A DNA stretch of 64,000 bases, from positions 1,088,001-1,152,000 of the forward strand of contig OZ252149.1 in the NCBI GenBank assembly GCA_965248755.1, given 5' to 3'. The DNA is from Candidatus Latescibacterota bacterium. GTDB taxonomy: Bacteria > Latescibacterota > CBDEFO01. Positions within the stretch are counted from its first letter, which is position 1. Every line of letters starts with the position of its first letter. Of the stretch, positions 3,226 to 62,108 are shown in pieces. The notes beneath the pieces were generated by a model. It was not told the DNA's origin, did not search any database, and saw nothing but the letters and a program-made list of their open reading frames with translations. A program made the translations under genes and the position numbers.

Positions 3226-3244
3226 CGCGATTGAACCTATCGGG
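3226..3244 (-). repeat. 19-nt palindromic micro-element, copy 1
   Basis: TC-[CGCGATTGAACCTATCGGG]-GA; reverse complement CCCGATAGGTTCAATCGCG. Confidence 0.8.
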
Positions 3245-3711
3245 GATTGCTGAGTTTACGTTGCCTAACATACTTAAAATAGATTTCTTACACATGGAAA
3301 TTCTCACGGCTCAACGGTTTGAAAGGGTTGTCTCAAAACTGTGCCCAAAATTAAGAGCTTTCGGTGGAGGTCCTGACGTCGGTGGCATAGAGGCCAAGGA
3401 TTCAATCCCGCACATCTAACTCCTTTCCTGAAGCCTATTGAGATGCTGCCCTCAAACATCTCTCCTGCCACAGGGTGGATCCCATTCAAGCACAGAAGTC
3501 CAACTATAGTCTGGCTAAGTAGCCAAGCCAGATGACGCCGCAACCCTGCCCGAGCGGTGGCTCCGCCGCGTAAGAAAGGCAGAGGACACATCAGCCATCA
3601 ACGAGATGTTGGCCGCGGATGCCCTATGATCCAGGAGGTCAGCTCATTCCGCTCCGTAAAGCGTGCTCTTATGTCGTCAAATTAAAACCCATTCCAGTGG
3701 AGGCACCCCTG

Positions 3712-4491
3712 ATGAGTTCCATAAATAATGTCGAGCGGTTCCGTAAGAGACTCGACGAAAACAAGATCTGCGTCGGCACGTCGGTGCAACTGTGTGATCC
3801 ATTAGTAAGCGAGCTGGCTGCGGAGGCCGGCAACGACTTTCTCTGGATCGAGATGGAACACTCCCACATGGGCCTTGCGGACGCGATGGGACACATCATG
3901 GCCTGTCGAGGTACGCAAACGGCGCCGCTTGTGCGGGTCTCCCATCCCGATCGTAATCTGATCAAGCCGTTCCTGGACCTGGCGCCGGCGGGAATCATCG
4001 TTTCCATGCTCGAGTCAGCCGACCAGACGTCGGAGATGGTTAAGGCATGCAAGTATCCACCGCAGGGCAACCGGGGATTTGGGCCGATCCGCAACATGTA
4101 CGGCAAGAACTCCATGGCAGAACACCTGGAGACGGCCGACGAACAGATCATGGTCTTCGCACACATCGAGACGATTCAAGCCGTGCGAGATCTGGATGCG
4201 ATCACGCGTATACCGGGGCTCGACGGGCTCAGCCTTGGCCGCAACGACCTCTCCGGGACGCTGAACAAGCTCGGCCAGCACACCGACCCTGAAGTTCTCG
4301 AAGCAATTGACACCGTCATCACGAAAGGAGTTGAGGCTGGACTGCATGTCGGCTGCTCGATCGGGACCGATCTAGATCAAGTCAGGGAGTGGCGCGCAAA
4401 GGGCATGAAGTGGTTCGCGCTGGGCGAAGAAGTCGGCCACATCTTTGACGGTGCCAAAACCATTGCAGACGAGGTACATGCAATGCAGTAG
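3712..4491 (+). CDS. HpcH/HpaI class II aldolase (2-keto-3-deoxy-sugar-acid aldolase type)
   Basis: WIEMEHS, PLVRV, KYPPQGNRGFGP, HIET and GRNDLS motifs. Start moved to ATG 3712 behind GGAGG. Confidence 0.9.
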   Translation: MSSINNVERFRKRLDENKICVGTSVQLCDPLVSELAAEAGNDFLWIEMEHSHMGLADAMGHIMACRGTQTAPLVRVSHPDRNLIKPFLDLAPAGIIVSMLESADQTSEMVKACKYPPQGNRGFGPIRNMYGKNSMAEHLETADEQIMVFAHIETIQAVRDLDAITRIPGLDGLSLGRNDLSGTLNKLGQHTDPEVLEAIDTVITKGVEAGLHVGCSIGTDLDQVREWRAKGMKWFALGEEVGHIFDGAKTIADEVHAMQ

Positions 4492-4576
4492 GTGATCGTC
4501 TTCCCACATGGTCGACGCAAACCAGAGCGAACGCTTAACGATCGGCTGGGTGCCTTGACCAGACGGGAATTTGGCA

Positions 4577-5200
4577 AGGACACAAAAGGCTGAAAAATGC
4601 ACTTGTCTTGACGTCACTGCTGCTCTGCGCCGCAATATATCAGGTCCGAGAGAGCCTCTTGGGTTACTAGCGGCTTCCCCGATAGGTTCAATCGGGAAGG
4701 ACTTCTCGAAGGGTGCTTTTGACGCGGCGGGTGCGAACTTCTATGTGTCTTGCGGTGAGCGCGCTCAGATGATACGCACGTGGGACGTCAATAACGACGA
4801 GAATATCGATCTGTATTTCGGTAACTCGCACGATCTGATAGAATACGAGCCATCACGGGTCTATCTTCAGCCAGATGGTAAGCCAAGTCCTGACGCAAGA
4901 TTAATGTTGCCCACGCGGCATTCATCTTCACAGTGCGTAAGCGACTTGGATGGTGAGGGTTATACAGACGTTATCATACTCAATTATATGTGGGTGCCCG
5001 ATCCTGTGGTTAGGGTTTCATCTACTGGGGTGGACCTGAAGGTCTGAGCCCTAAGTATCGGACTTCTATTCCGACGTTCTCTGCCCTGTAGGCGTCAGCG
5101 CTCGGGATGATGGTGGCTGCTTTCAACCACGACGGCTGGCCCGATCTTTCATTTTGCAATTTTTAAGCATGATCCTGGCGGTAACCATCGGACACTTTAC
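4577..5200 (+). pseudogene. Degenerate, internally deleted copy of the FG-GAP gene at 14293-17088
   Basis: Nucleotide homology to ~14278-14780, then a jump to ~16550-16650. Frameshifts, stops and a 19-nt insertion at 4678. Confidence 0.9.
4678..4696 (+). repeat. 19-nt palindromic micro-element, copy 2
   Basis: TTC-[CCCGATAGGTTCAATCGGG]-AAGGAC. The intact paralog reads TTCGAGGAC at ~14380. Confidence 0.9.
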
Positions 5201-5349
5201 ATTGCCGCGAACAATCGTATGGTGCTGATCGCCACCGTTGACAAGCCCCACCAGTAGGTGACGGCTCACCTGGAGGGACGGCGATTGGCGCTACGACGAG
5301 GTGCTCGCCACCGGGGTATGCGCGGGATCCCAGAATACAGGAGACTGAC

Positions 5350-6981
5350 ATGGAATCACAGATGGAGGCGCCGGGTACAAGGACAATTGCTCCAACCGTC
5401 CGACCAGTTACGGCCCGGAATATTGTAAACATTGTGCTGGAAGGCTGGAACGTCTGGTCTTCACGTTTTGTTTCCGCGCCCACGTGGACGTGGGGCGCCA
5501 TTCCGGACGCTGCGGGCTATGTTGTGAAGCTGGCGATCGGGAAACAGAAGGCGAAGGATTACAAGGTTGATCAGCCGCAGTTTGATATGTCAGATATCTG
5601 GGATCAACTGCCGATCGGCCCGATCGACGCGATGATCCTGGGCGTCGGAGCTGACGGCGCGGAAGTGTGCAATTCTCAGACGAAGAGTTTCTATAAGGTG
5701 CAGGGCTACGATGGTCGCAGGGCCGAGCCGTTGGATTGGGTTGCGGCCGTGCGGTGTAACATGGAGTATTTGCTGGCACCGCCGCGGGATCGTGTAGAGG
5801 ATTTCGAAAAAGGTTTACCGCGAGGCATCTGGTCGTGTATGGAGGACAGTGTGACGGGGCAGCGCTGGTCAAGCGTGGCGTGTCCCTGCCTGAACGGCGC
5901 TGGACACATCAGGTCGTTTCTGACTTTCTGTGCATATTTCCCCGATGATGAGATGGCAAGCGAAGCCAGACGTCAGGCGAAAGTGTTTGGTGATTGGTTC
6001 TTGGACAGTCGACATCCGAAAGAGTCGTACTGCAGCCTCTTTCCATACTCGGTGATTAAAGGCGGAGTACTGAAAGAAGGGGGCTACGGCAATACGATCT
6101 TCCGCGCAGCGCGTCTTGGCATCGTGATGATCGCTCTGTTTGAGACATTCGGCGACGAGGCATACCTGGAATATGCCCGGCACCTGGCCAACTTGCTCGC
6201 GAAGATTCAGCGGGACGACGGGTCATGGCCATTCCGCGTCGATCCGACAGATGGTTCGATTGTTCATGAGTACACTTCGAATATGGCGACGCAGGCTCGC
6301 TTCTTTGGCCTGCTTGAAGCGATCGAGCCGCACAGTGCGTACGAAAAGGCGCGTCGTAAAGCGATTCAGTGGATCATGAACAATCCGGTAAAGACGCGGC
6401 GCTGGGAGGGCATGTTCGAGGACATGGCGGAAGCACCACCGTACTCCAACCTGGAAAACTGGGCTGTCAACGAGACGATCAATTACCTGGTACACTATCG
6501 CGAGAACGATCCGGCTTACCTGGAGACGGCCGAGGAGCTGAACCGATGGGTCGAGGACCAGTTTGTCATCTGGCAAGAGGGAGATTCGTACGCGGTCGGC
6601 GACGGCCATATTGGCAATTCGGCGCTGCGTCCCAACTTGATCACGCCGACGCCTATGGTGCTCGAGCAATATGTATGCCCGTTCCCGATGGAGGCGCATA
6701 ATGGCAACTGGCTGCTGGCGCTGCTTGCGTTGCATCGGGCGACGCAGAAGGAAGAGTATTTCAATAAGGCCGTCGCTGCGGCCAATGCGATCGTTCGGGG
6801 CCAGCAGGAAAGCGGGGCGTTTTCCACTTGGGGATTCGATCTTCGCTTCGATCGGCCCCTGTCCAAGCTGAACTGGCCGGGTTACAATGCCTGCGCGAAC
6901 ACCGCCTTGATGTATTGTGATCAGTACTGCAAGGCGCGTGCAAAGGGCGAGTCGTTTGACATCGGGCTGCGAGGTGTTTGA
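5350..6981 (+). CDS. Hypothetical protein, probable (alpha/alpha) toroid glycosidase/lyase-like fold
   Basis: 543-aa ORF with RBS AGGAG and helical repeats with QRDDGSWPF and QQESGAF turns. No family recognised with certainty. Confidence 0.6.
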   Translation: MESQMEAPGTRTIAPTVRPVTARNIVNIVLEGWNVWSSRFVSAPTWTWGAIPDAAGYVVKLAIGKQKAKDYKVDQPQFDMSDIWDQLPIGPIDAMILGVGADGAEVCNSQTKSFYKVQGYDGRRAEPLDWVAAVRCNMEYLLAPPRDRVEDFEKGLPRGIWSCMEDSVTGQRWSSVACPCLNGAGHIRSFLTFCAYFPDDEMASEARRQAKVFGDWFLDSRHPKESYCSLFPYSVIKGGVLKEGGYGNTIFRAARLGIVMIALFETFGDEAYLEYARHLANLLAKIQRDDGSWPFRVDPTDGSIVHEYTSNMATQARFFGLLEAIEPHSAYEKARRKAIQWIMNNPVKTRRWEGMFEDMAEAPPYSNLENWAVNETINYLVHYRENDPAYLETAEELNRWVEDQFVIWQEGDSYAVGDGHIGNSALRPNLITPTPMVLEQYVCPFPMEAHNGNWLLALLALHRATQKEEYFNKAVAAANAIVRGQQESGAFSTWGFDLRFDRPLSKLNWPGYNACANTALMYCDQYCKARAKGESFDIGLRGV

Positions 6982-7250
6982 CTTGCCCCAGTGCGGGTTA
7001 GAGTAGTGATTGGTCCCCGTTATCTCGGGACAGAGAAGTAGATGCCACACACAGATGCATATCTATGGCGGGTGGACGGGGGCTGAAAGCTGGGCATAAG
7101 CGACGGTGGAAATGATTGAGGCATTGGATTACGGTTAATAGGGAAGGTTTGGGTTTCCGCTTGTGATCAGCTACCAAACCTCTCTGCAAGGTGAGGTGAT
7201 CTCATGATAACGGAGCTAATGGTATTGAGTTACGTGGTGGGTTTTACAGC

Positions 7251-8315
7251 GTGGAGACTATAGGTGTGGCTAGTGCTGGTGAACCGATCCAGCCGGTGTT
7301 TGAACTCTACATGGAAGAAGTCGATGTCTGGAAGAGCCAGTGGAACTTTCACCGCAGTGTGGATGGAGAGCTAGTTCTGATAGGCTCCGGGTCCGCCATA
7401 ACCAGCAGCGATGAGGGTCGAACCTGGCACGATTGGCCGGATATCAGCATGTGGCCGCAGGGTGGTATTGAAGCGATTGCTCGGCGCGGCGACGAACTGT
7501 TCATTCAGGGCGGCGACACGCGCATCTGGCGCTCGCAGGACGAAGGCAAGACGTGGTCCGGTGGGCAACACCTGCTCATGTGGCCCAAGCACTTTCAACT
7601 CGAAAACGGTAAGAAGTTGCTATGGACGCCGACCGGTGATAGGATTCTGGTGACTAAAGAGAACCTGTTGCTGGTCGGCGTTGATTTCCTGTTGGGGGGT
7701 GAAGGGCCGGGACCGGAACTTGTCGGCGCGCTTGTCAGCGAAGACAGCGGACAGACGTGGCGGCTGTATGAGTTGTTTGGTCCGCCGCCGGGTTTTCGTG
7801 ATCAGCCTGAAGGTTTTGGTGAGCCGAAGCTGGTGGAGCTGGCCGATGGCCGTATCTGGATGGTCTTTCGCACCTGTCTGGGTCATTTGTGGCAGGCGTT
7901 TTCCGAGGATGGCGGGCGAACGTGGGGTAAGCCGTCTTCGACCGGCCTGGTCTCACCGTTGGCGCCGCTTAATGCCCAGCGTGTGCCCGGAAGCGACGCG
8001 GTCGTGGTCGTGTGGAGTCACGCCAAACCAACCGACTCGACGGTCTGGCGTTCCGAGTATAACTACTGGTTCCCGCGCGCCCCGATGGTCTTTGCCGTCA
8101 GCCACGACCACTGCAAGAGCTGGAGCCGGCCGGTCATCGTCACTGAGACTGAGGGCTTTATGCGGAACATTTACTTTTCCGACAAAGCAATGTTCATCAA
8201 CTACGAGGAAGGCACCAGTGCAGAGCACTGGGTGAAAGGATTTCGCTACCTACCGAAGCTTGTGATTTACGACTTGAAATATGTGTTGGCGCTGCAACCC
8301 CAAGAAAAAGGATAA
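7251..8315 (+). CDS. BNR/Asp-box beta-propeller protein (sialidase-like)
   Basis: Asp-boxes SSDEGRTW, SQDEGKTW, SEDSGQTW, SEDGGRTW, SHDHCKSW; also EPKLVELADGRIWMVFR. Confidence 0.85.
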   Translation: METIGVASAGEPIQPVFELYMEEVDVWKSQWNFHRSVDGELVLIGSGSAITSSDEGRTWHDWPDISMWPQGGIEAIARRGDELFIQGGDTRIWRSQDEGKTWSGGQHLLMWPKHFQLENGKKLLWTPTGDRILVTKENLLLVGVDFLLGGEGPGPELVGALVSEDSGQTWRLYELFGPPPGFRDQPEGFGEPKLVELADGRIWMVFRTCLGHLWQAFSEDGGRTWGKPSSTGLVSPLAPLNAQRVPGSDAVVVVWSHAKPTDSTVWRSEYNYWFPRAPMVFAVSHDHCKSWSRPVIVTETEGFMRNIYFSDKAMFINYEEGTSAEHWVKGFRYLPKLVIYDLKYVLALQPQEKG

Positions 8316-8318
8316 TCA

Positions 8319-9690
8319 TTGGTCTCTGGGAGAATTGAACAGATAAGAAGCATAATCTCTGGTGCAATTGTGCTACTGAGTTTTTCCGAATTCTGCCATG
8401 CCGACGATCCTATGGAATTGCCCAGAGCCTCTTCGGCTGACGTGGCGGGATGGCAGCCACATGTGGTCCGACAACTAAACGGCAGGGCCGGGCAAATCCG
8501 GCTCCCTGCACAGTTCCAGATCGTCACCCAGAGTTGGAACAGGGTAGTAGCTGTGCCCTACGTTATCTATATGCCGGAGAAGGATCGGCTGCTCATGCTG
8601 GTCAATTGCGATTATCCGCATATCCCCTATATCATGACCAGCGACGATCATGGAGCCACTTGGACTGATCCTCGTCCGGTGAGTGTCGACAAGGATGGGA
8701 AGCCCTTGCATATTGGTCTGGGAACGAGCCTAACTTATCTCGGCAGTGGGAATACACTCTTGTATGCGGGCACCCGCCGCTGGTTCAGCAGGGACTACGG
8801 TAAGACCTGGGGCGACACCGTTCCGATCACCCCGGCTTCTGACGGAAGGGGTTGGCACATCTGGGACCCACCGTTGGTCGAACGAGACCAGAAGACCGGC
8901 AAAGTCATCCGGCTTGCCGAGACGGGCTACTCCTGGTTGCTGACCTCCCGAGGTCGAGCACGCCTATCAACGGGGCTATATCCGCTTCAGTGCCGACGAA
9001 GGGAAAACCTGGAGCAAGAGTATCAGGGTGTCGCAATGGAAAGGCGTCAGTGAGGTCGCTCTCGTTCGCGCCGGCAACGGCGACCTCATCGGCGCTTGCA
9101 GGACCGATATTCCACGGCGGATAGAGTCGGGTCTGGACCACTTCGAAGACCTCGGGATCTCCGTCTCCAAAGACGATGGCAACACGTGGTCAACTGTTGA
9201 GAAGCTCTACGATTACGGTCGCCATCACCCGTCCCTGATTCTGATGCCCAATATGGACATCGTGATGACATATGTCGTCCGCTTGGGGTACGTCGAAAGC
9301 TTGGATGGCTTTCCCCAGTTCGGGGTGGTAGCGGTGGTCAGCCACGACCACGGACGGACGTGGGATCTGGACCACCGCTACATTCTCCATGCGTGGGTGG
9401 GCAACCGTAAGGGGCCAGATGAGGACGGCATCGGGCGCGCTTATTGGCCGAGCCCGCAGGCTACCTCTTCGGTGCTGCTTCCGGACGGGTCAATCCTGAC
9501 CGTCTTTGGGACAGGCTACCGCAGTAAGCCGGGTCTGAGTGAGGATGGCACCGGTACAAGCAAGTTCGCTCCAAGAGACGTCGGGGTTGTCCACTGGCGT
9601 ACCAGCTCTGAATCCCTAAACGCCGATCGGACAATTCGTGACGCGGCATTCGACTCTGATCACCGCAACATCTTTGATCCGTCGCCCTGA
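8319..9690 (+). pseudogene. Sialidase-like BNR protein split by a +1 frameshift near 8940
   Basis: ORFs 8319-9053 and 9028-9690 together match paralog 17136-18452. TGG TTG CTG A CCT CCC here versus TGG TTC AAA CCT CCC in the paralog. Could also be an assembly error. Confidence 0.85.
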
Positions 9691-9769
9691 GGTCAATACG
9701 ACCTGTCCATGGCAAAAGCGGACCGGTCATTGCTGTAATGGTCCTGGATAGCCCTACGAAAAAACAGAA

Positions 9770-11179
9770 ATGGGAGACGTGATGACTGACAAACTGGCAT
9801 TGGAAGGCGGAACACCGACGGTTCCGGTGGAACTGATGGCCCACGATTGGGAGCGATACCGCAAGGCCAATGACGAAGAGATCGAAGCTGTGGCGTCGGT
9901 TCTGCGAATCGGGCATTTAAGCATAGCCTTGCCCGTCGGCATGCCGCAGGCTGACGCGCTCGAGAAGGAGTTCGCCCAGTGGACGGGGGCCGAATACTGC
10001 GTGGCGGTCGATTCGGGCACCGCGGCTCTGCACTGCGCCGTGGCGGGCGTCGGCGTCGAGGCAGGCGATGAGGTCATTATACCGGCTCACACCTTTATCG
10101 CCTCGGCCATGGCCGTGCTGCATCAAAACGCCATCCCCGTCTTCGTGGATACCGATCCACAGACCTTTCTGATCGACGTCAATAAGATCGAGCAGAAGAT
10201 CACGTCCAGGACAAAGGCCATCATGGTGGTGCAACTGTTCGGGCTGCCGGCCAACATGGACCGCATCCGCCAGATCGCCCAACGACACAACCTGAAAGTC
10301 ATCGAAGACGGTTGCCAGGCCTACGGCAGCCTCTATCACGGAAAGAAGGTCGGCACGCTGGGTGACGCAGGTGGGTTCTCCATGTGCACCACCAAACAGT
10401 TGATGGTCGGTGAAGGTGGGTTGGTGACCACCAACAGTAAGGATGTCTATGAACGCGCCGCCACGCTTCGCCTTTTCGGCGAGCAGGGCAGCGATATGAA
10501 GGCCAAAGATCGAAAGTACATGTCCGAAACGATCGGCTGGAACTACAAGATGGCCGAGACTCTTTCGGCACTGGCGCGAGTCAGGTTGAGGCATCTGGAC
10601 GAATACATCAGCGGTTGCCAGCGCAATTCTGAATACCTGACGCAGCAGCTTCAGCCGATAGATGGTGTGGAGCCGCCTTTCGTGCCGGAGGGCAGGACTC
10701 ACACCTATTACATCTACTCGGTTCATGTCAATCCCGGACAACTCAATCTGGACATCGAAGCGGGCCATCTGCGCGATGCCGTGTTGAACACCCTGGCGGC
10801 GGAAAACGTGGATGTGGCACTCTGGCAGAACGCCCCTGTGCCCGCCCAGCCGCTGTTCCAGAGCCGTAATGCTCGCGGCAAGGGCAGCCCGTGGATCTGG
10901 CTGGGTTCCGAGGTTACGTATGACCTGCACGACTATCCCAACACGTTTGAGTCATTGGACGATTCGTTCATGGTTCGCCGAATGTGCCCGCCCAATGACA
11001 CCGAATTGATGGATCGCTACGCCGACGCCTTTAGAAAGGTCTTTAGACGGATCGATCGCGTCGTCGAGCAATACGATCAGACACATCGATACAAACCACT
11101 TGAACAGCGGATCGCCTCCCTCAGGGGGGCCGTGATCAGTCCCGATAAAGCCGCCGAGAATACCACCAGGACAGGATGA
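9770..11179 (+). CDS. DegT/DnrJ/EryC1/StrS family PLP-dependent aminotransferase
   Basis: SGTAALH, GDEVIIPAHTFIAS, IEDGCQAYG and FSMCTTKQLMVGEGG (PLP lysine). Confidence 0.93.
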   Translation: MGDVMTDKLALEGGTPTVPVELMAHDWERYRKANDEEIEAVASVLRIGHLSIALPVGMPQADALEKEFAQWTGAEYCVAVDSGTAALHCAVAGVGVEAGDEVIIPAHTFIASAMAVLHQNAIPVFVDTDPQTFLIDVNKIEQKITSRTKAIMVVQLFGLPANMDRIRQIAQRHNLKVIEDGCQAYGSLYHGKKVGTLGDAGGFSMCTTKQLMVGEGGLVTTNSKDVYERAATLRLFGEQGSDMKAKDRKYMSETIGWNYKMAETLSALARVRLRHLDEYISGCQRNSEYLTQQLQPIDGVEPPFVPEGRTHTYYIYSVHVNPGQLNLDIEAGHLRDAVLNTLAAENVDVALWQNAPVPAQPLFQSRNARGKGSPWIWLGSEVTYDLHDYPNTFESLDDSFMVRRMCPPNDTELMDRYADAFRKVFRRIDRVVEQYDQTHRYKPLEQRIASLRGAVISPDKAAENTTRTG

Positions 11180-12252: not shown

Positions 12253-12281
12253 TCCAATAAAATCAGAAGATGGTACAGACC

Positions 12282-12653
12282 ATGAAGAAGCTTCGCGTTG
12301 CATCAGTACAGATGGAGCACACGCCGGGCGACAAGGAGGCCAACTTCGCCAAGATTCGTGACTTTGTCCAGCACGCTTCGCAGCAGGGTGTGGAGTTTAT
12401 CTCCTTCCCGGAATGCTGCATCACAGGCTACTGGCACCTGCGCCATCTTTCGCGGCAGCGTCTGGTCGAGCTGGCCGAGCCAGTCTTTGACGGCCCGGCA
12501 TCTCAGCAACTGCGCTCACTGGCAATGGATCACAAGATGACCGTCGCCGCCCTGCCCAATGGCGAATGTCAACGTCATCGCAAGCTGCACTGTATTGTCA
12601 GCGAACATATGTCCTCGGGTTCGGAATTTACCGTCTTTGATTCGTCGCCCTGA
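12282..12653 (+). pseudogene. Truncated nitrilase/carbon-nitrogen hydrolase
   Basis: RVASVQ, FPECCITGY (catalytic Glu) and HRKLH (Lys) are present. The ORF ends before the catalytic Cys and is joined to a copy of the sialidase 3' tail. Confidence 0.85.
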
Positions 12654-12915
12654 GATCAATACGACTTGTCCATGCCAAAAGTGGACTAGTAATTGGTGCA
12701 GCAGTCTTGGATATCCATTGACCTGTGCAAGAATCTGTGGAAAAAGCAACTTACAACTAATCAACCCCTTTATTAGCTGGGCTGCCGGATTAACTTAGGC
12801 TCCGTGAGCACATCATTAGGATCAAATTCCCTATCAGTTCTTGACAATGTCTTGTCGAAGTGCTACTGGTAATGCCTACTAGCCAACGGGTCGCCCGTTT
12901 CAGGATCGCAATCAC

Positions 12916-14163: not shown

Positions 14164-14292
14164 CGGAGATCCGGCGTGGCATCTCACGCCAATGCTGCGA
14201 AGTTGTTATTGCTGTTGCGCGGACACAGGATGACTTCACACGTAATAGCTGTTCACCCCGACGGCACTATAGGTAACAAGGACACCAAAGCA

Positions 14293-17088
14293 CTGAAAAA
14301 TGTACTTATCTTGACGTCACTGCTGCTCTGGACCGTAATATCTCAGGGGGACGAGAGAGCCTCGTGGGTCACTAGCGGGTTCGAGGACTTTTCAAAGGGC
14401 ACTTTTGACGCGGCGGGAGCGAACCTCTATGTGTCTCGCGGTGGGCGCGTTCAGATGATACGCACGTGGGACGTTAATCACGACGGGAATATCGATCTGT
14501 ATTTCGGTAACTCTCACGATTTGATAGAATACGAGCCGGCACGCGTCTATTTTCAGCGAGATGGCAAGCCGGATCCCGACGCAAGCTTAATGTTGCCCAC
14601 ACTCCATTCATCTTCACAGTGCGTAAGCGACTTGAATGATGATGGGTATACAGATGTGATCATACTCAATTATATGTGGGTCCCAGATCCTGTGGTTAGA
14701 AGTTTCATCTATTGGGGCGGGCCTGAAGGTCTGACCCCGAAGTATCGGACTTCCATTCCGACGTTCTCTGCCCGACAGGCCTTCGCTGCGGACTTGAACG
14801 GTGACGGATTAAAGGAAATTATCGTGTTTAACCAAGAACGGGAGCGGTTCGATCTCAAAGGGGGCTGCATTTCCATTTATTGGCAGACGGGGGCCGGTGT
14901 TTTCCCTCTCGACCGTCGTGATGACATCGTGGTGCCGTCACTTGGGGAGGCAGACATGGCCGATATAAATGGTGATGGTTTTGCCAATATAGTTTTTCAC
15001 GGCATACCTGCCGAGGATAGCCTTGGCCCTGTAGCCGTGCCTGTTCTTGAGGCCATCGGCAGCTCCAAGGAGGTGGAGAATGTCTTCCTTCTGGCCGGAA
15101 GGGAGGGTGGATTAGAGCCGATGCAAGTCCTTGCGATCAGCGGTGACCGATCTGGTAGACCTCGTTTGCTGAAGCTCAACGGAGCTTATCATCTGGGAAT
15201 GTTGACCGAAGAGACAATAGATCTGTATCCCTTTTCCGGACTGCAGGTGGCAGAACCCAGACAGATCGAACTGTCCGGCGAAAAGCGCCAAGTGGTTGTG
15301 GCTGATCTCAACGCCGACGGCCTCGATGACCTGATCTGTGTTCGATCCGGGAATATCCACTTCCTGTGGGGATCGGATACCGGCTACGACCCCAAGCGGG
15401 AATTCACCTTACCAATCCAGGCAACAAACATTACCATCGGAGATGTTACTAACGACGTATTACCGGATCTGGCTGTAGCGGTATATGAACACGGTAAAAG
15501 CTACACTGCCCAATCCCGGGTGTACATAAACAGCAAAAAAGGCCTGGACGAAGATCGCTTCATTGCTCTGGAAACTTCCGGTGCTACGGAAGTCCACGTT
15601 GCGGATTTGAATCACGATGGGAAGAAAGATATCATCTTCGCCTGCTCTCTAGGAGGACACTCCTCGCTCGATCCGCCTGTTCGGGTTTATCTAGGCAGTT
15701 ATGACGGCATCTATAAGCCAGGTCGCCATTACGATCTGCCCGCCGTCAGTGCCTACGGAGGGTTCATGGCTGACTATAACGACGACGGTTTTGTCGATTT
15801 GTTAGTCTCGAACCAACGTGAGGGCACCCGCGCCCTTGGCGAGCAAACCAGCTCAATCTACTGGGGCGGCCAGGATGGCCTGTCCGTAGATCGTGTCTCG
15901 AGGTTCCCGACCGAATATGCGCTTATCTCGATGACCGCTGACATTAATCGCGACGGCTATCTGGATATCGTCATGGGTGCAGTCCAGGGGGGCACGACAT
16001 ACGCATATTGGGGCGGCGAGACTGGGTTTTCGGCAGAGCGGCGACAGGCCGTCAAGCTGGGTGATGTGTGGGGAATACATCTGGCTGACGTGGACAGAGA
16101 CGGCTGGCTTGATTTGGTCTATACCGCCATCGAACACAACGCTACCTATATCCTTCTGGGTGATAAGAAGGGTTTTGATGTGGACCGTAAAATCACACTT
16201 CCCATGCCCTCCGGCGGAGCAGGAGTGGAGACGGCTGACCTGGATGGCAACGGCTGGCTTGACCTGGTTCTCACCGGCTGGTCCAATCCTCGAAAGGGCT
16301 TTGCCGGGACCAACGTACCGAGCTATATTTGGTGGGGTTCCGAGCGAGGTTTCTCCGCGGCCCGACGGACCGAATTTATGTTGCAGGGCGCTGATCACGG
16401 CGTCGCCATCGCCGATCTGAACAGAGACGGACATCTGGACATTGTTTGCAGTAACTACGATCAGGGTATCGAGCGCATCTTTGATGCTTACATATTCTGG
16501 GGAAATCCAGAATCCATATACTCTATGGACAAGAGGACACGACTACGCCAGGCCGCATCGCTTGGGATGATGGTTGCTGATTTCAACCACGACGGTTGGC
16601 CCGATATTTCATTCTGCAATCACAATCCAGGCGGTGACCATAATACCCTTTCGCGTGTTCACTGGAACCGGCAGGGTAAATTCACCGATGACGATGTGAC
16701 CTTGCTGCCCACCCTTGGTCCGCACGGATCGATCGCCTCGGACCTCGGCAACGCCTATACCCGAAAGCTCGAAGAAACGTATACCTCGACCGTGTTCCAG
16801 CGCCCGGCGAACGCTAGCTTTGATAAACTTTCATGGAAGGCCCAGAATAAATTCGGTACGTCCGTCGTTTTCGAGGTCCGAACCGCGGCTACACGTAAAG
16901 GCCTAAATAGCACAGCTTGGCTCGGGCCTGACGGAGAAAGTTCCTACTTCACCGAGCCCAGTACAAGCCTAAAAATGCTTCCAGCCAAGCATCCATGGAT
17001 ACAATACCGTGCTGTCCTGAGGACCCCGGACGGTGCGGCCACCCCCATTCTCACAGAGGTACAGATTGCCCTATGCCCTGTGGATTAG
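14293..17088 (+). CDS. Secreted FG-GAP/VCBS repeat protein
   Basis: Many D-[LIVF]-N-x-D-G-x-x-D repeats. A signal peptide (L)KNVLILTSLLLWTVISQG begins at CTG 14293; upstream alternatives are GTG 14176 and ATG 14230. Confidence 0.85.
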   Translation: MKNVLILTSLLLWTVISQGDERASWVTSGFEDFSKGTFDAAGANLYVSRGGRVQMIRTWDVNHDGNIDLYFGNSHDLIEYEPARVYFQRDGKPDPDASLMLPTLHSSSQCVSDLNDDGYTDVIILNYMWVPDPVVRSFIYWGGPEGLTPKYRTSIPTFSARQAFAADLNGDGLKEIIVFNQERERFDLKGGCISIYWQTGAGVFPLDRRDDIVVPSLGEADMADINGDGFANIVFHGIPAEDSLGPVAVPVLEAIGSSKEVENVFLLAGREGGLEPMQVLAISGDRSGRPRLLKLNGAYHLGMLTEETIDLYPFSGLQVAEPRQIELSGEKRQVVVADLNADGLDDLICVRSGNIHFLWGSDTGYDPKREFTLPIQATNITIGDVTNDVLPDLAVAVYEHGKSYTAQSRVYINSKKGLDEDRFIALETSGATEVHVADLNHDGKKDIIFACSLGGHSSLDPPVRVYLGSYDGIYKPGRHYDLPAVSAYGGFMADYNDDGFVDLLVSNQREGTRALGEQTSSIYWGGQDGLSVDRVSRFPTEYALISMTADINRDGYLDIVMGAVQGGTTYAYWGGETGFSAERRQAVKLGDVWGIHLADVDRDGWLDLVYTAIEHNATYILLGDKKGFDVDRKITLPMPSGGAGVETADLDGNGWLDLVLTGWSNPRKGFAGTNVPSYIWWGSERGFSAARRTEFMLQGADHGVAIADLNRDGHLDIVCSNYDQGIERIFDAYIFWGNPESIYSMDKRTRLRQAASLGMMVADFNHDGWPDISFCNHNPGGDHNTLSRVHWNRQGKFTDDDVTLLPTLGPHGSIASDLGNAYTRKLEETYTSTVFQRPANASFDKLSWKAQNKFGTSVVFEVRTAATRKGLNSTAWLGPDGESSYFTEPSTSLKMLPAKHPWIQYRAVLRTPDGAATPILTEVQIALCPVD

Positions 17089-41184: not shown

Positions 41185-41295
41185 CCCACCAAATTGATCT
41201 ACCTCTTTGTATCTTGTCTCCTGATTGATCGACACTAACATACCCCCCCTTGACAGAGCGACATATATTTTGCAAATTGGGGTTTGAGGCTTGTC

Positions 41296-41314
41296 CCCGA
41301 GTGATGCTGTCGGG
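41296..41314 (-). repeat. 19-nt palindromic micro-element, diverged copy
   Basis: TC-[CCCGAGTGATGCTGTCGGG]-GA; 15/19 to CCCGATTGAATCTATCGGG. Confidence 0.6.
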
Positions 41315-41328
41315 GAAAGGATGTCAAA

Positions 41329-41592
41329 GTGTCAAGCCCCAAGGTGGAAGATGGTAAGCGCTGGACGGCGAACCGTAGGGCGGAGGTGGTGTTGGCTCTT
41401 TTGAGAGGAGCGGATGTATCTGAAGTGTGTCGGAAGAATGGAATTAGCCAGTCAGAGGTGTATGCTTGGCGTGATAGTATCTTAGAGGGTGGGCAGGAGC
41501 GTTTAAAGTCTCGGCGTGGTCGCAAGGATCCGAGGGAGCGGGAGGTTGGTCCCCGATAGAATCAATCGGGGATTGGAGCGAAAGGTAGGAGC
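41329..41592 (+). mobile_element. IS3-like OrfA HTH transposase fragment, disrupted by a 19-nt insertion
   Basis: KRWTANRRAEVVLALLRG..VSEVCRKNGISQSEVYAWRD. Removing 41552-41570 continues the frame as REREVGRLERKVG. Confidence 0.8.
41552..41570 (+). repeat. 19-nt palindromic micro-element, copy 3
   Basis: TC-[CCCGATAGAATCAATCGGG]-GA. Confidence 0.9.
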
Positions 41593-42025
41593 TCAGTACG
41601 AGGAGATGGGATTCGGGGATACAAAAAGGCAGCGGCTGTTATAGTTACAGATAACACAAGGTAAAGCTACAATATTAGGCACCTTTATATGTTGCGAACA
41701 GTCAATTATTGTTGCATATTAAGGTTTGCGAATATGCAGCTAATGCAGGTGTACCAAATTTTGGAGATTATCGGACGGTCGCTATCGTTGTCAACTTGGA
41801 CATGCGTCCATCACAACAACGCTGGATCGCTATGGTCATCTGATGCCGGAGGTTCACAGGCAGGCAGCGGAACAACTGTATGATCAGTTGTCTGGCGGGT
41901 TTGGTAGACTTATATTAGAAAATGAGCAGAAAAACGAAGAAAGGAGTTACAGTGATTTTTGTAACTCCTAGTTTTTATTGGTGGAGCTGAGGGGGATCGA
42001 ACCCCTGACCTATTGTCTGCCAGAC
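41583..42025 (+). repeat. ~440-bp direct repeat, copy 2 (integrase remnant running into tRNA-Ala)
   Basis: Homologous to 32679-33120; includes QLGHASITTTLDRYGHLMPEVHRQAAEQL at ~41792-41897. Confidence 0.92.
41942..41969. terminator. Hairpin downstream of tRNA-Ala (likely terminator)
   Basis: AGGAGTTACA / TGTAACTCCT 10-bp perfect stem. Confidence 0.6.
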
Positions 42026-42054
42026 AATCGCTCTCCCATCTGAGCTACAGCCCC
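41979..42054 (-). tRNA. tRNA-Ala(GGC)
   Basis: GGGGCTGTAGCTCAGATGGGAGAGCG-ATTGT-CTGGCAG-ACAAT-AGGTCAGGGGTTCGATCCCCCTCAGCTCCACCA; 76 nt, G3:U70, CCA end. Confidence 0.97.
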
Positions 42055-56400: not shown

Positions 56401-57681
56401 TATCGTGGCATCGGGTATGGGATTGCCCGCAGAATCGGAAGCGACAGCTATCAAGGTCGATGTCCCACCGTCGACTCTGACTATAGAGGGGCTAACCGAA
56501 AGTTCTATCGAAGCGGGCAGTGCTGCCTTTATCTCCACTTCGATCGTCTTGGATATAGTGTCAGTGCCCCTTTTGGCTATGGCGGTCACCAACGCCCTAC
56601 CTGCTCCAGCGGAGGTTAAAATAGACTCTGCTCTACCGTCAGAATCCGTAAAAGCCACAAAAGGCTCTATCTTCCCTAACGTAGTTGAAAAATCTATCTC
56701 CGCGCCCTCTACAGGCTGATTCTCATCCAAAAGACTCGCTGAGATTAGGGAAGAACCTACATTAGCGATGAACGTATCCGGATCGGCTTCGATTTCAAAC
56801 GTTAAAGCCGTAAAGGTGATCGAGACTTCCCCAGAGACTCCCGCGGCTTTGGCTGTAACTATTGCTTTACCTGCTGCGGAACTCGAAAGCGTGGCTTTTA
56901 CTCTCCCTCTGACATCAGTGGTATCCACCTCTATAAAGAGATTCCCCAATGTGGTCGTTAGCTCCACCGGCTCTCCCACAATAGGAGTTTCCGCAGCGTC
57001 CGTTAAGGTCACACTTATAAGGGACCCTTCTGGGTCATCCACAATCAGATTTACGGGGGTCGCTGAAATTGCCAGATCGATCCCTGTAAAGATCACCTGT
57101 GTGTTCCTTTCTATGTTGCTGTGTCGGGCTGTGATTATGGCTATCCCCTCCGTCCTCTGGCTGATCAGCTTGACGGTGGCTCTTCCATTGGCATCCGTGA
57201 TCGCAGAACGCGGTATCACTCCGAGCGTGGAAGAGAACTGTATTTCCGAAGAGACGACGGGGTTGCTATCTGCGTCCTTCAAAAGAGCCGTGATCGTTGA
57301 CGTGCTCGCTCCGTTGGATAAAATATCGGTTGGGTTTGCCGTCAAGATGAGAAATATCTTCTTAAAGACTACAGCTATAGTGTCCCTTGAATTGACCACC
57401 TGGGCCTCGACCCTAACCATGTCGGGAGTTGTGCTGCTTGTAAGCTTGGTCATAGCTGTTCCACCGACTGTAAAGCTAGGACTCAAAACCGAGCCGCTCC
57501 CTCCAGGGAGGATGTTGAAGATCACTTCTGTCCCGTCTGAGAGCGATGTGCCATTATCATCTGCCACGCTTGCCACTATAGTGGTCGAAGAAAGGCCGTT
57601 TGCCACTATAGCTGTCGTATCAGCCGATAGGGTCACCTTAATACCCTTGTAGGCCACCTCTGTTGTGTCGAGGGAGTTTAT
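50500..57681 (-). pseudogene. 3' part of a giant Big_1 (invasin/intimin Ig-like) repeat lipoprotein, cut off by IS1380
   Basis: More than 20 repeats of the type A[DN]GxxxxxITAxLxDxxGNP..TDxxGxAxxxLxS. In frame with 59308-60584 once the IS is removed. Confidence 0.9.
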
Positions 57682-59307
57682 CCCCCATTCGCCATATTAG
57701 ACCCGAAAAATGGTTGTCAAAGTCGCCAGAACATGTTATATTACAATAAATAAGACTCATAAATGGCGGATAAATATTGATCATCCAGAGGGTGAAAGAA
57801 TCAAAGTAGGTTTTGATGGAGGAATAAAGCTTGAATTTCATGGTGCAAAGGTGACATCAAACGGTGGACTTCTTGCGTATCGTGACCTTGATTACGCACT
57901 GGGATTATTTGATTCGGTATCAGCGGTTTTTACCGATAAACGCACAGGCCGTAATATCCAACATGATATATCTACTCTCCTGCGTCAATCGATATACAGC
58001 CGTCTTGCAGGATATGAAGATGTAAATGACGCCGAGCGATTATCCGTTGATCCCGTCATGCGAGCGATTACCGGAAAGAAGGACAAAGGCAGGCAAGCTG
58101 CCAGCTCCAACACGATAGGACGTTTTGAAACTGATATACTGACTCAGCATGACAATCTCAGAAACTTGTCAGATATCAATGGCAAGTGGGTTCAAAAAGC
58201 GATGAGTAAAACACAGCATCAACGAATCATTCTGGACATGGACAGTTCGGAGAGTCCGGTACATGGCCAGCAGGAAGGATCAGCTTACAACGGTCATTTC
58301 GGATGTACCTGTTTTCATCCAGTGTTCTGCTTCAATCAGTTCGGGGATTGTGAAGGAGTCCTACTTCGCTCTGGTAATGTTCACAGTGCTGATCGTTGGA
58401 AGGAAGTTCTGGAACCGATCGTCAAGAGATACGAGAGCAAGAAGAATAGGAAATACTTTCGAGGCGATGCTGCATTCGCAAAGCCTGAGATTTATGATTA
58501 TCTGGAGGGAAACGGCTATTTGTATGCCATTCGGCTTCCCGCAAATGAGATACTCTATGAAAAGATACGATACCTGCTGACTCGGCCAGTTGGACGACCG
58601 CCGAGGAAACCGATTGTATCGTTATATGAATTTCAATATAAAGCGGCCAGTTGGGATCAATCGAGGCGAGTGGTCGCCAAGGTTGAATGGCACCAAGGGG
58701 AGTTATTCCCAAGAGTGGGATTTATCGTGACCAACATGAGCGCCAAGCCAGAAGGCGTGGTACACTTCTACAATGGCCGTGGCAGAGCTGAGCAGTGGAT
58801 TAAGGAGGGCAAGTATGCTCTGAACTGGACCCGACTCTCATGCAAGCGTTTCGTCTCCAATCAGGTGAGGCTCTGGCTGTTTGTTCTGGCTTACAACTTG
58901 GGCAACTTCCTGCGACGTTTTGTTCTTCCGAAGAAAATCAAACACTGGTCACTACGCAGCCTCCTCGTGAAATTTATCAAAATCGGAGCGAAGATTGTCA
59001 GACACAGCGGATATATTACGTTTCAAATGGCTGAGGTTGGGATAGACAAGAGGTTATTTGCCGAAATATTATCCCGGATTGAACGATTGCGATGTTATTC
59101 TGTTTAAACTGCCACATTTTTTTGTGAGTCGATGGAGAGGTGTCTCTAATTGGAGGATTTAAACACAAAGAAAGTGATAATTCAGAGGAAAATACTATTT
59201 TAATTGAAAAAAGTACTTGTTGAAAAATGTAAAAGTGGTAATATTAATTCAGAAACAAGAATGTATCGAAATATAATCCCTCATGAATGTGATATGGGGA
59301 ATGTCGG
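57682..59307 (+). mobile_element. IS1380-family insertion sequence, 1626 bp, 5-bp TSD TTTAT
   Basis: IRL CCCCCATTCGCCATAT and IRR (reverse complement) CCGACATTCCCCATAT, 13/16 identical. TTTAT at 57677-57681 and 59308-59312. Confidence 0.93.
57710..59107 (+). CDS. IS1380-family DDE transposase (true start probably further downstream)
   Basis: TSNGGLL, GYEDVNDAERL, LDMDSS, YNGHF, RGDAAF and FYNGRGRAEQWIKEGK. Confidence 0.95.
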   Translation: MVVKVARTCYITINKTHKWRINIDHPEGERIKVGFDGGIKLEFHGAKVTSNGGLLAYRDLDYALGLFDSVSAVFTDKRTGRNIQHDISTLLRQSIYSRLAGYEDVNDAERLSVDPVMRAITGKKDKGRQAASSNTIGRFETDILTQHDNLRNLSDINGKWVQKAMSKTQHQRIILDMDSSESPVHGQQEGSAYNGHFGCTCFHPVFCFNQFGDCEGVLLRSGNVHSADRWKEVLEPIVKRYESKKNRKYFRGDAAFAKPEIYDYLEGNGYLYAIRLPANEILYEKIRYLLTRPVGRPPRKPIVSLYEFQYKAASWDQSRRVVAKVEWHQGELFPRVGFIVTNMSAKPEGVVHFYNGRGRAEQWIKEGKYALNWTRLSCKRFVSNQVRLWLFVLAYNLGNFLRRFVLPKKIKHWSLRSLLVKFIKIGAKIVRHSGYITFQMAEVGIDKRLFAEILSRIERLRCYSV

Positions 59308-60584
59308 TTTATACTCCTTGCTTCTATCAGAACACGTCCTGGTATCGTGCTGCTTGTAAGCGTGGTCGTGGCCTTCCCGTTTGCCGTCAATCTCGGGCTC
59401 CCTATAGACCCCGTTCCCTCTATGATCTTAAATTCCACCTCTGTGTCGTCGGAAAGAGAGGTCCCATTTTTGTCCGTGATGTCTGCCGTGATCGTGGATG
59501 TACTGATACCGTCTGCGACTATAGACCTCGGATTAGCCGAAAGTGTTACTATCACGTCTAAATAGACAACTTCTATCGTGTCGGCTGACTCTAACACCCT
59601 TGCCTCTACCAGAACGGGTCCCGGAGTCGTTGTGCTTGTAAGGACGGTTTCGGCCTCTCCTCCAAACGTGAGTCTCGGGCTCAATACAGAACCGTTGCCG
59701 CTGACGATCTCAAAGTTCACTTCAGTGCTGTCGGGGAGCGCACTGCCTGTCCTGTCGGTGACTGTGGCCGTGATGATAGAGGTTCCCACGCCGCTTGCGG
59801 CTACAAACCTCGGACTTGCAGTCAAGTTTACTACGATTTCGGTGTATATGACCTGCACACTATCCCTCACATCTCCCACTCTAACTTCTACGGAGACTTT
59901 GTCGGGCACAGTACTGCTTCTAAGGATAGTCGAAGCCCTTCCCTCCACGGTAAGTTTAGGGCTTAGGATAGATCCTGAGCCTCCGGGAAGGATAGCAAAG
60001 ATTACAGTAGTGCTGTCCGGGAAGGGATTGTTATTCTGATCTAAAAGAGTGGCAGTAATAGTGGAAGTGCTGACGCCGTTTGCTACGATAGAAGTAGGAC
60101 TAGCGGATAAACTTAAGTTGACCTCAAGGTCACTAACTCGGGCCTCGGCCGCACCCAAGGCGGTGGCAGTGAATGTTGTCGGCGATCCGGAAAGGCCCGG
60201 GGACGTAGCGAAAACAGTGTTTACTCCGGAGATAGGACCGAGCGTGAGCCTTGTGGAAGCTAACCCGTCCGAGCCAGTGACGACAGTATCGGCAGTGACG
60301 GTTCCCCCGCCGGCTGTTACCGTAAAGATTATCGTCACGCCTGCTACAGACGTGTTATTCGGGTCTATAGCTGTGACTACAAGGGGATTGGGGAGGGTAT
60401 GTCCTGCATTGCCAGACTGATTGTTGCCTGAGACTATACGGATATCGAAGTTGACATTGGAACTTAAGCTCGGTTTGCTCGGAGACACTGGATTGTCTTC
60501 ATCGCCGCAGGAAAGAGCAAGAATAAGAAACGTTAAGGACAATAATCCAATTGTAAGACCGAACGCCCTTTTGTTGTCGAACAC
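59308..60584 (-). pseudogene. 5' part of the giant Big_1 repeat lipoprotein
   Basis: GTG start behind AAAGGGAG, lipobox LALS-C and about four Ig-like repeats; reads into the IS end after EARSIN. Confidence 0.9.
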
Positions 60585-60715
60585 AACGTCTCCCTTTGTG
60601 GTGATTACACGCCCGATACGCATTCTGTAATATTATGCTTTCCCCTATTGAAGTAGATAGTAGAACAGACGTTCTGTCTGGTTAGACTGGGTATCCCTTT
60701 CCTGTATGCTGTCTT

Positions 60716-61576
60716 CTATTTTACTTCCCCCTTATAGACGCTTTTCAAGACCATTTGGACCTTGTCTATGAGTTCTATCCATTCAAAAGGCTCTATTAGA
60801 TACTCATCTGCCCCGTACATCATCGCTTTGACTTTATCAGGCGTATCCGAAAGGGGCGTTAACATTATTATCGGTATATGAGATGTCCTTGAATCTTCCT
60901 TAATCCTCTGACACAACTTATGGCTGTCTGTGTCTGGAAGATTTATATCTAAAATGACCAGATCGGGAATTTCCGCTGTGACTCTGTTGAATCCTTCTTC
61001 CCCGTTTCGGGCTTCGATCACTTGGTAGGAAGCCTTGAGGATATCTGACGCCATCTCTCTTTGAGAGGTATGGTCGTCAATTACCAAGACCTTGTCAAAT
61101 ATCCTTTCCTCTCCAAATTCCAAAAGGGTGTCCAGCTCAACTATCCTGTTGTCCAATTTCATTATCAGGTTAATCTGAATATTAAAGACATTTAAGAAGA
61201 ATCGTTTGAAGAGACGCTCTTTATCTTTGAAGAATTTCATAAGATCGACTCTTTCGAACCTTAAAAGGACACACGGGGCCTCTGTCTTCACGGCCTCTTC
61301 GTTATCAGCCTCTGCCTTCACGGTCGCTGTTCTGGCGTACTGTTCTATTATGACCTGAGATCCCAGAGTATCGCCTTCGGTGACTTCAGCCAGCTTTATC
61401 CCTCCAAACCAGACTGAGACCCTTCCTTTTTCAATAATATACATATTCGACCCTTCTTGCCCCTCCTCGATCACCACCTCTCCAGGCGGAAAGTCCTTTC
61501 GCACTCCCACCTTGAGGAACTCCTCTCTATCCTCGTCCGAGAAACCTTTAAATAGTACCTCGATATCTTTGACCAT
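60716..61576 (-). CDS. Cyclic-nucleotide-binding domain plus response-regulator receiver protein
   Basis: VIEEGQEGSNMYIIEKGRV..RTATVKA (cNMP) and KVLVIDD..PDLVILDINLP..IPIIMLT (REC). Confidence 0.9.
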   Translation of the reverse strand: MVKDIEVLFKGFSDEDREEFLKVGVRKDFPPGEVVIEEGQEGSNMYIIEKGRVSVWFGGIKLAEVTEGDTLGSQVIIEQYARTATVKAEADNEEAVKTEAPCVLLRFERVDLMKFFKDKERLFKRFFLNVFNIQINLIMKLDNRIVELDTLLEFGEERIFDKVLVIDDHTSQREMASDILKASYQVIEARNGEEGFNRVTAEIPDLVILDINLPDTDSHKLCQRIKEDSRTSHIPIIMLTPLSDTPDKVKAMMYGADEYLIEPFEWIELIDKVQMVLKSVYKGEVK

Positions 61577-61580
61577 ATTA

Positions 61581-62108
61581 TTACTCCTCTGCCAATGAGG
61601 GCAAAGAGACGAAAAAGTTCAGCGGCTCGGTCACAGCGTCCAGGAACGAAGCCGTAACCTCAACTCTTCCCCGTGTCCTCGGCGACACCGCAATAAACGT
61701 GACATTGGATGTGAACTCCCTCTTGTTGTTCTCCAGGATATCGACCGTAATCTGTTTGGGAGCTAAAGATCCGCCGAATGTAGTGTTCAAGACTATTTCC
61801 CCAGTCGTTCCGACGGGTATATTGCTCCCGTCTGTTCGCCTGAGTGTCGTTACTATGGGTGCTTCATCACCTACTTCCAAAAATCGGTTCGGCGTGAAAA
61901 GCGTCAGCGTGAAATCTAGATCAGAAGTGACAGCTGAGACTGTCTTTCCCTCCGTACCACATCCTGAGAGGAAAATCAAAATCAAAATCGAAGAGAGAAG
62001 ATAGTAGACGATAGACAGATCCCCGATTGAATCTATCGGGGACAGGGCACCGCCTCGCATCCCTGTGAGCTGTCTGCTTGCCTCTGCGTGTTTACTAATC
62101 TGAATCAA
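61581..62108 (-). CDS. Hypothetical lipoprotein with one Ig-like domain; start uncertain
   Basis: Hydrophobic stretch with lipobox LSG-C; beta-rich mature part. Confidence 0.6.
   Translation of the reverse strand: MIQISKHAEASRQLTGMRGGALSPIDSIGDLSIVYYLLSSILILIFLSGCGTEGKTVSAVTSDLDFTLTLFTPNRFLEVGDEAPIVTTLRRTDGSNIPVGTTGEIVLNTTFGGSLAPKQITVDILENNKREFTSNVTFIAVSPRTRGRVEVTASFLDAVTEPLNFFVSLPSLAEE
62022..62040 (-). repeat. 19-nt palindromic micro-element, copy 4
   Basis: TC-[CCCGATTGAATCTATCGGG]-GA. Confidence 0.9.

Follow-up and report, generated by a model that had tools for sequence, protein, structure and literature searches.

Nostoc and related cyanobacteria carry small dispersed repeats (SDR1-8), reportedly described by Elhai et al. 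in Genome Res in 2008; these are stem-loops of 21–27 nt with compensatory changes, which nest in themselves, in heptamer arrays and in other small elements, and for which no mobiliser is known. A 23-nt hairpin that inserts with or without a 4-nt tag is reported here from a 64,000-nt stretch of DNA (the window) of a Candidatus Latescibacterota bacterium (contig OZ252149.1, positions 1,088,001–1,152,000). The initial annotation of the window had recognised five copies of its 19-nt core, and had taken them for a site-specific element inserted at TC^GA and mobilised in trans.

Several described systems resemble the hairpin in part. SDR5 inserts precisely at HIP1, a short palindromic site (PMC4390886, PMC5861425; here and below, PMC numbers refer to excerpts of the papers). 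Repetitive extragenic palindromic (REP) sequences of the GTAG type, including the REPIN-RAYT systems, carry, like the hairpin, a 4-nt tag 5′ of an imperfect hairpin of 20–30 nt, reach hundreds of copies, and lie mostly outside genes and sometimes in frame (PMC3733652, PMC8266576, PMC3116915); in the excerpts, singlets in Pseudomonas are regarded as remnants of doublets. The stem-loop is nearly identical to those of the CGTC REPs or NTS-SRM-Ssn repeats (SRMs) of Deltaproteobacteria, with an 8-bp stem often framed by A..T (PMC3733652, PMC11893778). IS91 targets 5′-CTTG and terIS is cut at CTCG adjoining a palindrome, and the hairpin shares with IS91 the CTTG tetranucleotide, a hairpin beside a terminal tetranucleotide and insertion without target duplication (PMC13181058). 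Rickettsia palindromic elements are likewise carried in frame in protein genes and read as a short peptide, but measure about 150 bp (PMC10969869), whereas the hairpin adds 6–11 residues. As far as the excerpts go, CGTC REPs have no dedicated transposase and the dissemination of REPs is poorly understood. How repeats shorter than 30 nt spread (SDRs, CGTC REPs and REP singlets) is an open question. No description of the hairpin sequence or of the junction rule reported below was found in the literature covered, outside which subscription papers and supplements largely fell.

Copy Number and Structure of the Hairpin

The window lies in a 4.54-Mb genome on a single contig that is 98% complete (G000), which was compared with a second genome of the same genus (G001), about 88–94% identical to it. 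A genome-wide search for CCCGA-N9-TCGGG returned 350 matches in G000, versus 2 in an order-3 Markov genome and 1–33 for each of the other spacer lengths from 0 to 24. With up to three mismatches to the 21-mer, 565 copies were found, versus 1 in the reversed genome, and these collapsed into 494 independent sites with unrelated flanks. Copy number was therefore far beyond control, and copies occurred in both orientations, as had been proposed from the window. The frequency of TCGA in G000 was unremarkable (observed/expected 0.93). CTAG was strongly avoided (0.25), and CATG, GGCC and CGCG were mildly so (0.70–0.75); an idea involving GANTC methylation was rejected, the frequency of that site being neutral.

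Complementarity outside the 19-nt core was 0.84 and 0.76 at the first two positions and dropped to 0.28 at the third (486 distinct sites). Because it stopped after two nucleotides, the unit is a 23-nt hairpin with an 8-bp stem, rather than the 19-nt element of the initial annotation. It folded as DNA with about −8 kcal/mol (z about −3), and had a conserved A.A mismatch in 463 of the 494 sites; at 25 sites, stem pair 6-18 had undergone a compensatory change to A-T. Among the 350 cores, 156 lay within TC..GA and 90 within CC..GG. Across the independent sites, the outer pair was T-A at 209, C-G at 154, mixed at 66 and A-T at 2 (odds ratio 30). The outer pair went with particular loop variants in a test of 254 sites (chi2 p 3e-11, a value that shared repeat contexts may inflate). 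It is thus inherited with the hairpin, and the TC/GA or CC/GG ends belong to the element and travel with it, instead of being part of the target. TCTA targets in loops, whose empty state was known, turned into CC..GG or GC..GG on filling.

Filled and Empty Sites

In a first comparison, covering 2.30 Mb of G001, both flanks could be mapped for 221 of 517 G000 copies (138 shared, 58 empty, 25 unclear), and reciprocally for 216 of 259 G001 copies in G000 (142 shared, 54 empty, 20 unclear), with empty counts that include repeats borne by insertion sequences (ISs). When coverage of G001 was extended to 2.68 of 4.58 Mb and to 24 short loci, an orthologous or paralogous empty site was available for 171 of 1005 copies, representing 85 independent sites after shared contexts were collapsed. 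Net gains at these sites were 13 nt (1 site), 15 (2), 16 (1), 18 (7), 19 (19), 20 (13), 21 (8), 22 (1), 23 (0), 24 (1), 25 (3), 26 (4), 27 (17 rows, 16 events) and 29–35 (8). The distribution peaked at 19–21 and at 27, and kept its shape when flanks were at least 90% identical.

In the +19 class, the 23-mer swapped out four target bases, while in the +20 class three bases were lost, often with a new C after the hairpin. The 4-mers replaced in the 19 events of the +19 class were TCTA (5), TCGA (2) and ACGA (2), with GCTT, GCGA, TGTA, TAGA, CCGA, TCGT, GTAG, TCCA, TCGC and TCGG once each. About eight of these targets were the loop of another hairpin copy. In 16 of the 19, the target was at most one mismatch from TCGA (background 5.4%). 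The TC^GA specificity initially proposed therefore survives as a loose preference for TCGA-like sites in this class, but not as a strict rule, since exact TCGA was replaced twice only, the element's ends overwrite the outer bases, and a longer, tagged product exists. Of the 16 events in the +27 class, 11 had an exact CCTG or CTTG tag and 1 a near tag, 3 were TTGA duplications and 1 was unclear. The target was duplicated in only 1 of the 11 exact-tag events. Three of the four +26 events were 3-nt duplications.

In multi-copy ISs, each junction class was represented by 1–9 filled versus 58–90 empty copies, showing that all three classes are insertions and not excisions. Contigs from two public sequencing runs gave at least two informative differences: a copy near L275:388 was missing, and a copy near L275:11547 had 19 extra letters. 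Direct repeats of 4 nt flanked 21 of the 494 sites (shuffled mean 2.9, maximum 12), and 16 of the 21 were TTGA, CTTG or CCTG. The absence of target duplication claimed for the five window copies thus holds for most copies, with this minority excepted. Taken as a whole, the hairpin is almost certainly a mobile and non-autonomous element, and its proposed hairpin shape, abundance and mobilisation in trans were likewise supported.

Donor Tag and Target

CYTG stood at the hairpin foot in 62 of the 494 sites, versus about 9 expected and 6–19 at shifted offsets, and TTGA at 30 of 735 non-nested feet versus 3.8 expected. In 10 of 11 cases the tag had been inserted where the target had none, so that it is borne by the donor. 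The 3′ flank of tagged copies was itself tag-like (Y82% Y82% N G52%). Overall the target is loose, of the YYKN/TCGA-like type. Tagged forms were seen at 12 metagenome loci, 8 of which had CYTG in the 3′ flank, or 4 of 8 independent contexts. The loop is asymmetric and the tag occurred to either side of it (22:40), and there was no replichore bias for the loop (262:232) or the tag (33:29), which fits a strand-symmetric event.

Outside the family, no general excess of CYTG-tagged hairpins was found in G000, where only GTAG was enriched. A second tagged hairpin of the CCTG/CTTG type was present there in three copies. At loci L213, L215, L217, L219 and L220, a different CCTG/CTTG-tagged hairpin within a REP-like repeat lay immediately downstream of the hairpin and in tandem with it, and at L222 and L225 other CCTG/CTTG-led hairpins were nested in SRMs flanking ssn genes of Deltaproteobacteria. 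No recurrent hairpin family other than the one described was polymorphic between G000 and G001.

Copies in the Window

All five 19-nt cores lay at the positions and between the flanks given by the initial annotation, and are named here by their first base. Copies 3226 and 41296, thought to be 19-nt insertions at TC^GA, turned out to be 27-nt products whose empty sites lack TCGA. The former (3220–3246, plus strand) consists of a CTTG tag (3220–3223) and the 23-nt hairpin (3224–3246), and its ortholog in G001 is shorter by exactly 27 nt. The latter (41290–41316, plus strand) consists of CTTG and a diverged 23-nt hairpin upstream of the OrfA of an IS. At this site 82 IS copies were empty by 27 nt and at least 7 were filled, so several IS copies share the insertion; directly ahead of the tag stands a G in place of the A seen in empty copies.

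Untagged hairpins were found at the next two copies. At 4676–4698 (plus strand), the hairpin has taken the place of TCGA within a gene for FG-GAP repeats, now broken and recognised by its FG-GAP match, and the intact paralog (open reading frame, ORF, 14176–17088) has the empty TCGA at 14381–14384 (plus strand), in agreement with the initial annotation and with a +19 product. The terminal GA of this copy has changed to AA in G000, whereas the filled copy in G001 keeps GA. At 41550–41572 (plus strand), a +19 product replaces CCGG or TCGG inside the IS OrfA. Deleting 19 nt does restore the frame, as had been noted, but in the 83 IS copies that lack the insertion the site is CCGG (78), TCGG (3) or CCGT (2), and never TCGA. 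The OrfA remnant of this multi-copy IS (41321–41620, plus strand), interrupted by copies 41296 and 41552, has a translation that matches an intact OrfA elsewhere in G000.

The fifth copy (62020–62046, minus strand) comprises the hairpin at 62020–62042 and CCTG at 62043–62046, which precedes it on the minus strand and is possibly not a donor tag but a heptamer-array head. It had no ortholog in the compared part of G001. The ORF reading through it (61581–62108, minus strand, start uncertain) had no Pfam or NCBIfam match; it encodes LSGC after a hydrophobic stretch, presumably a lipobox-like motif.

An Rfam scan of the window detected no family except a tRNA, whose gene (41982–42054, minus strand) adjoins the IS remnant holding two copies. 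An intact IS1380-family transposase gene flanked by a 5-bp direct repeat was located at 57710–59107, with about 55 related ORFs in G000.

Placement in Genes and Nesting

Copies were depleted in genes, with 70 of 517 lying deep in ORFs of at least 150 amino acids, which make up 71% of the genome. Those within genes were read through as short peptides adding 6–11 residues, and all nine in-gene G000 sites with an empty counterpart had gains divisible by three (18–33). Intergenic copies were near expectation (observed/expected 298/289 in tandem, 54/75 in divergent and 68/55 in convergent spacers), with no fixed distance to starts. Singlets predominated, only 23 of 516 neighbours being within 100 bp. 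Based on rough regular expressions, the repeat contexts of the 565 copies included the element's own arms (218; 39 copies fully and 179 partly nested), heptamer arrays (89) and REP-like repeats (103). Both G000 and G001 also had dozens of copies of a composite of about 150 bp made of two inverted CGTC-like REPs, and in some of these the hairpin stood at both inner feet.

Distribution in Other Genomes and Phages

The pattern YCCCGA-N9-TCGGGR had 312 matches in G000 and 352 in G001, versus 0–13 in 119 other genomes of the phylum. The same letters were present in four metagenome-assembled genomes (MAGs) of Deltaproteobacteria/Thermodesulfobacteriota (37, 12, 6 and 9 copies) and in one of Anaerolineales (3 copies). 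The hairpin is therefore specific to this genus within the phylum, but not lineage-specific in the wider sense initially proposed, as identical letters recur in other phyla, in metagenomes and in phage contigs. Copies in the MAGs were in frame in two protein genes, which by sequence likeness we take to be RelA-like and LuxR-like. Orthologous RelA spans, measured as match lengths, were 591–597 nt in six full-length matches and 582 nt in a seventh, and 612–621 nt in four matches, including the filled one.

The exact 21-mer was absent from viral contigs; two relaxed patterns matched 14 and 6 loci there, of which about five are plausible, tagged members. Judged without Pfam annotation, no enzyme was seen beside these apart from the phage's own genes. 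One phage contig (L295:2501–2531) had, between two head-like genes, a family-like hairpin tagged on both strands. No RNA was listed as holding the hairpin. The patchy occurrence across phyla suggests horizontal spread. Moreover, since the same core occurs as ordinary CGTC/SRM repeats in Deltaproteobacteria (L118 and L267–L269, GTCA-tagged repeats with a CCCGA-N9-TCGGG core and similar loops), such repeats are a likely origin of the hairpin.

Search for the Mobiliser

Candidate mobilisers, Y1 and IS110 among them, were looked for in carrier genomes, and none was flanked by the hairpin in the loci examined. Y1_Tnp (PF01797) was absent from G000 and G001; Y1 genes occurred in four other carriers, and the 12 loci examined had no hairpin copy within about 1.5 kb. 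Y2_Tnp was absent from G000 and G001 as well as from the 13 genomes searched in G041's order, which are incomplete MAGs, while the same search was positive in 4 of 41 relatives. IS110 was present in G001 and G042 only, being absent from G000, G041 and G045, and Cas1 was in neither G000 nor G001. Reverse transcriptase (RT) genes were limited to G042 and G000. The two in G000 (C1:3731484–3732284 and C1:3677787–3679310), one of which abuts an IS, were not found in G001.

The only GIY-YIG protein of G000 was of UvrC size (608 amino acids). G001 had one small Ssn-type GIY-YIG gene (L271, C4:479893–480114), which is flanked by inverted SRM hairpins and was not found in G000, and six small GIY-YIG genes of Deltaproteobacteria, among those listed, were flanked by other hairpins or by none. 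Four-helix-bundle genes amounted to one broken gene in G000 and none in G001. None of the 12 Y1, 15 four-helix-bundle and small GIY-YIG loci was bracketed by the hairpin. G000 also had 76 GTAG-tagged REP hairpins versus 24.5 expected, with no Y1/RAYT in G000 or G001, and its CGTC repeats and heptamer arrays likewise had no intact partner genes. As GTAG REPs persist there in the absence of RAYT and CGTC repeats in the absence of Ssn, a missing partner gene is weak evidence, and the hairpin may similarly have persisted beyond a partner gene that is repeatedly gained and lost.

Relation to Known Repeats

By the traits generally ascribed to SDRs, the hairpin behaves like one: inserts measure 23–27 nt, copies are fully or partially nested, 89 of 565 lie in heptamer contexts, and compensatory changes are present. 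Nevertheless, sequence and phyla differ, two junction products were resolved, and the target is loose rather than a fixed octamer. It looks like a tagged REP, yet it departs from GTAG REPs and REPINs in having CCTG, CTTG or TTGA as its tag, which is missing from about 80% of sites and stands on either loop side. GTAG did occur at 29 feet, mostly as the CAGTAG of heptamer arrays. Filled and empty sites showed that the hairpin moves as a singlet, whereas GTAG singlets are seen as doublet remnants, and no RAYT was found in G000 or G001 or flanked by the hairpin.

The hairpin differs from CGTC REPs and SRMs in having no CGTC or GTCA tag (GTCA at 2 of 988 feet), no CCA tail and no head-to-head dimers, and it does not lie beside ssn genes but inserts into SRMs. 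An IS91 derivative is contradicted by the single hairpin, by the frequent loss of target bases and by the lack of a transposase in the 15 carrier-lineage genomes searched; insertion beside a CTTG/GTTC-type tetranucleotide with no duplication describes the +27 class in outline, but not the +19 and +20 classes. Miniature inverted-repeat transposable elements, which are non-autonomous and of the DDE type, duplicate their target at every insertion, whereas here direct repeats were few and most events lost target bases.

Mechanism and Alternatives

The interpretation favoured here, tentatively and with a little less than even confidence, is that the unit inserts singly through an enzyme supplied in trans, which would make cuts staggered by four bases in the donor as well as the target. 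An overhang kept by repair would yield +27 or +26, as a tag if it came from the donor and as a duplication if it came from the target, and a trimmed overhang would cost target bases and yield +19 or +20, so that one enzyme might account for both products. Gains at 23 minus 3–4 and 23 plus 3–4, with none at 23, are as expected from such a stagger. Several observations weigh against it. No family among Y1, Y2, IS110, Cas1, RT and Ssn was present in both G000 and G001, and ordinary-looking genes, judged by N-terminal sequence, were all that lay between flanking copies at 41 ORFs and within 58 pairs of tagged copies. About 9 of the 62 CYTG feet were CCCTG heads of heptamer arrays. CYTG was 3′ of the hairpin at 13 sites, 8 of them also tagged 5′, so that the reverse product predicted by a symmetric exchange, with a target-like 4-mer first, then the hairpin, then the tag, was rare, and the target preferences of the two classes overlap loosely (NCGN versus YYNG). 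Gains outside 18–20, 26 and 27 were found at 28 of the 85 sites, many nested or in genes constrained to multiples of 3 nt. As empty sites came from paralogs or from a species about 88–94% identical, junction bases may have drifted, and the part of G001 covered was 2.68 of 4.58 Mb.

Host repair with no dedicated enzyme, in which copies would spread through short-patch gene conversion or template switching primed by microhomology, with the hairpin foot or tag as the pairing seed and perhaps a nickase, for instance Ssn, as the trigger, seems an unlikely explanation, even if much fits it. All 9 TC..GA-type +19 targets were within one mismatch of TCGA, which equals the element's joined ends; adjacent bases often shifted to donor-like ones (G for A ahead of the tag, C for T behind the hairpin); element-like arms flanked 45% of untagged copies; a CCCAA stem variant recurred in the loop of host copies; no enzyme was found; and a stem-loop similar to the hairpin is found in the CGTC/SRM repeats of Deltaproteobacteria, which Ssn nicks (PMC11893778). 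However, none of the 10 +19 events of the CC/GC..GG type was at a CCGG-like site, tags were inserted into targets lacking them, and slippage would not readily produce sharp ends with a gap at +22 to +24. Other genera of the phylum have the same repair genes and no hairpin, and Ssn, in G001 only, is flanked by its own SRMs. A single-strand HUH transposase (RAYT or IS200-IS605 Y1, or IS91-type Y2) could instead move the tagged hairpin, with the tag as guide or terminal tetranucleotide and +19/+20 as a by-product, and this appears less likely still. A tetranucleotide, an imperfect hairpin and a tetranucleotide-like target with no duplication are HUH anatomy (PMC8266576), to which the conserved A.A mismatch can be added; Y1 genes occur in four other carriers, and orphan GTAG REPs show past RAYT action in G000. 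But neither Y1 nor Y2 was found in G000 or G001, Y1 loci were not flanked by the hairpin, the tag keeps no constant position with respect to the loop, target bases are lost in the majority product, and there was none of the lagging-strand bias favoured by IS608 and ISDra2 (PMC6006769).

Exchange at a 4-nt core common to tag and target, through an IS110-type or tyrosine recombinase, would explain a perfect tag on one side and a degenerate, tag-like target on the other, and is nonetheless very improbable: it does not produce a net loss of 3–4 bases, IS110 was absent from three of the genomes, and the stiffness of DNA makes a double-stranded circle of 27 bp implausible. Hardly credible is the strict 19-nt element at TC^GA, despite the 156 cores in TC..GA, the TCGA-like preference of the +19 class and the exact fit of copy 4678, because +20 and +27 events together outnumber +19 and the IS sites of copies 41296 and 41552 contradict it, as do the 90 cores in CC..GG, the rarity of exact TCGA among targets and its ordinary genomic frequency. 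A fixed transcription-factor operator or terminator under selection, suggested by the palindrome and its depletion in genes, is almost certainly wrong. Indeed, intergenic copies follow the available space with no fixed distance to starts, which rejects an operator, and copies are present or absent between sister species, have empty orthologous sites, and insert into ISs and their own loop.

Implications

Dozens of before/after pairs gave a junction rule, 23 plus or minus 3–4 nt with a donor tag and a loose target, against which candidate enzymes can be tested in vitro. A bolder claim, possible but doubtful, is that the hairpin belongs to a class of mobile DNA not yet described, made of single hairpins that bear a tag and ranking among the smallest known, for which an unrecognised nuclease or recombinase would make the 4-nt staggered cuts; the same machinery would move other CCTG/CTTG-tagged hairpins (at L213, L215, L217, L222 and L225, and three in G000), and the element would be carried between phyla by temperate phages and write short peptides into proteins. 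If it is true that an undescribed enzyme inserts an oligonucleotide of 23–27 nt without homology arms, it would also be of interest as a tool. For the genomes themselves, the hairpin disables ISs and adds 6–11 residues to dozens of proteins, and spurious peptides are to be expected in the annotations of uncultured lineages.

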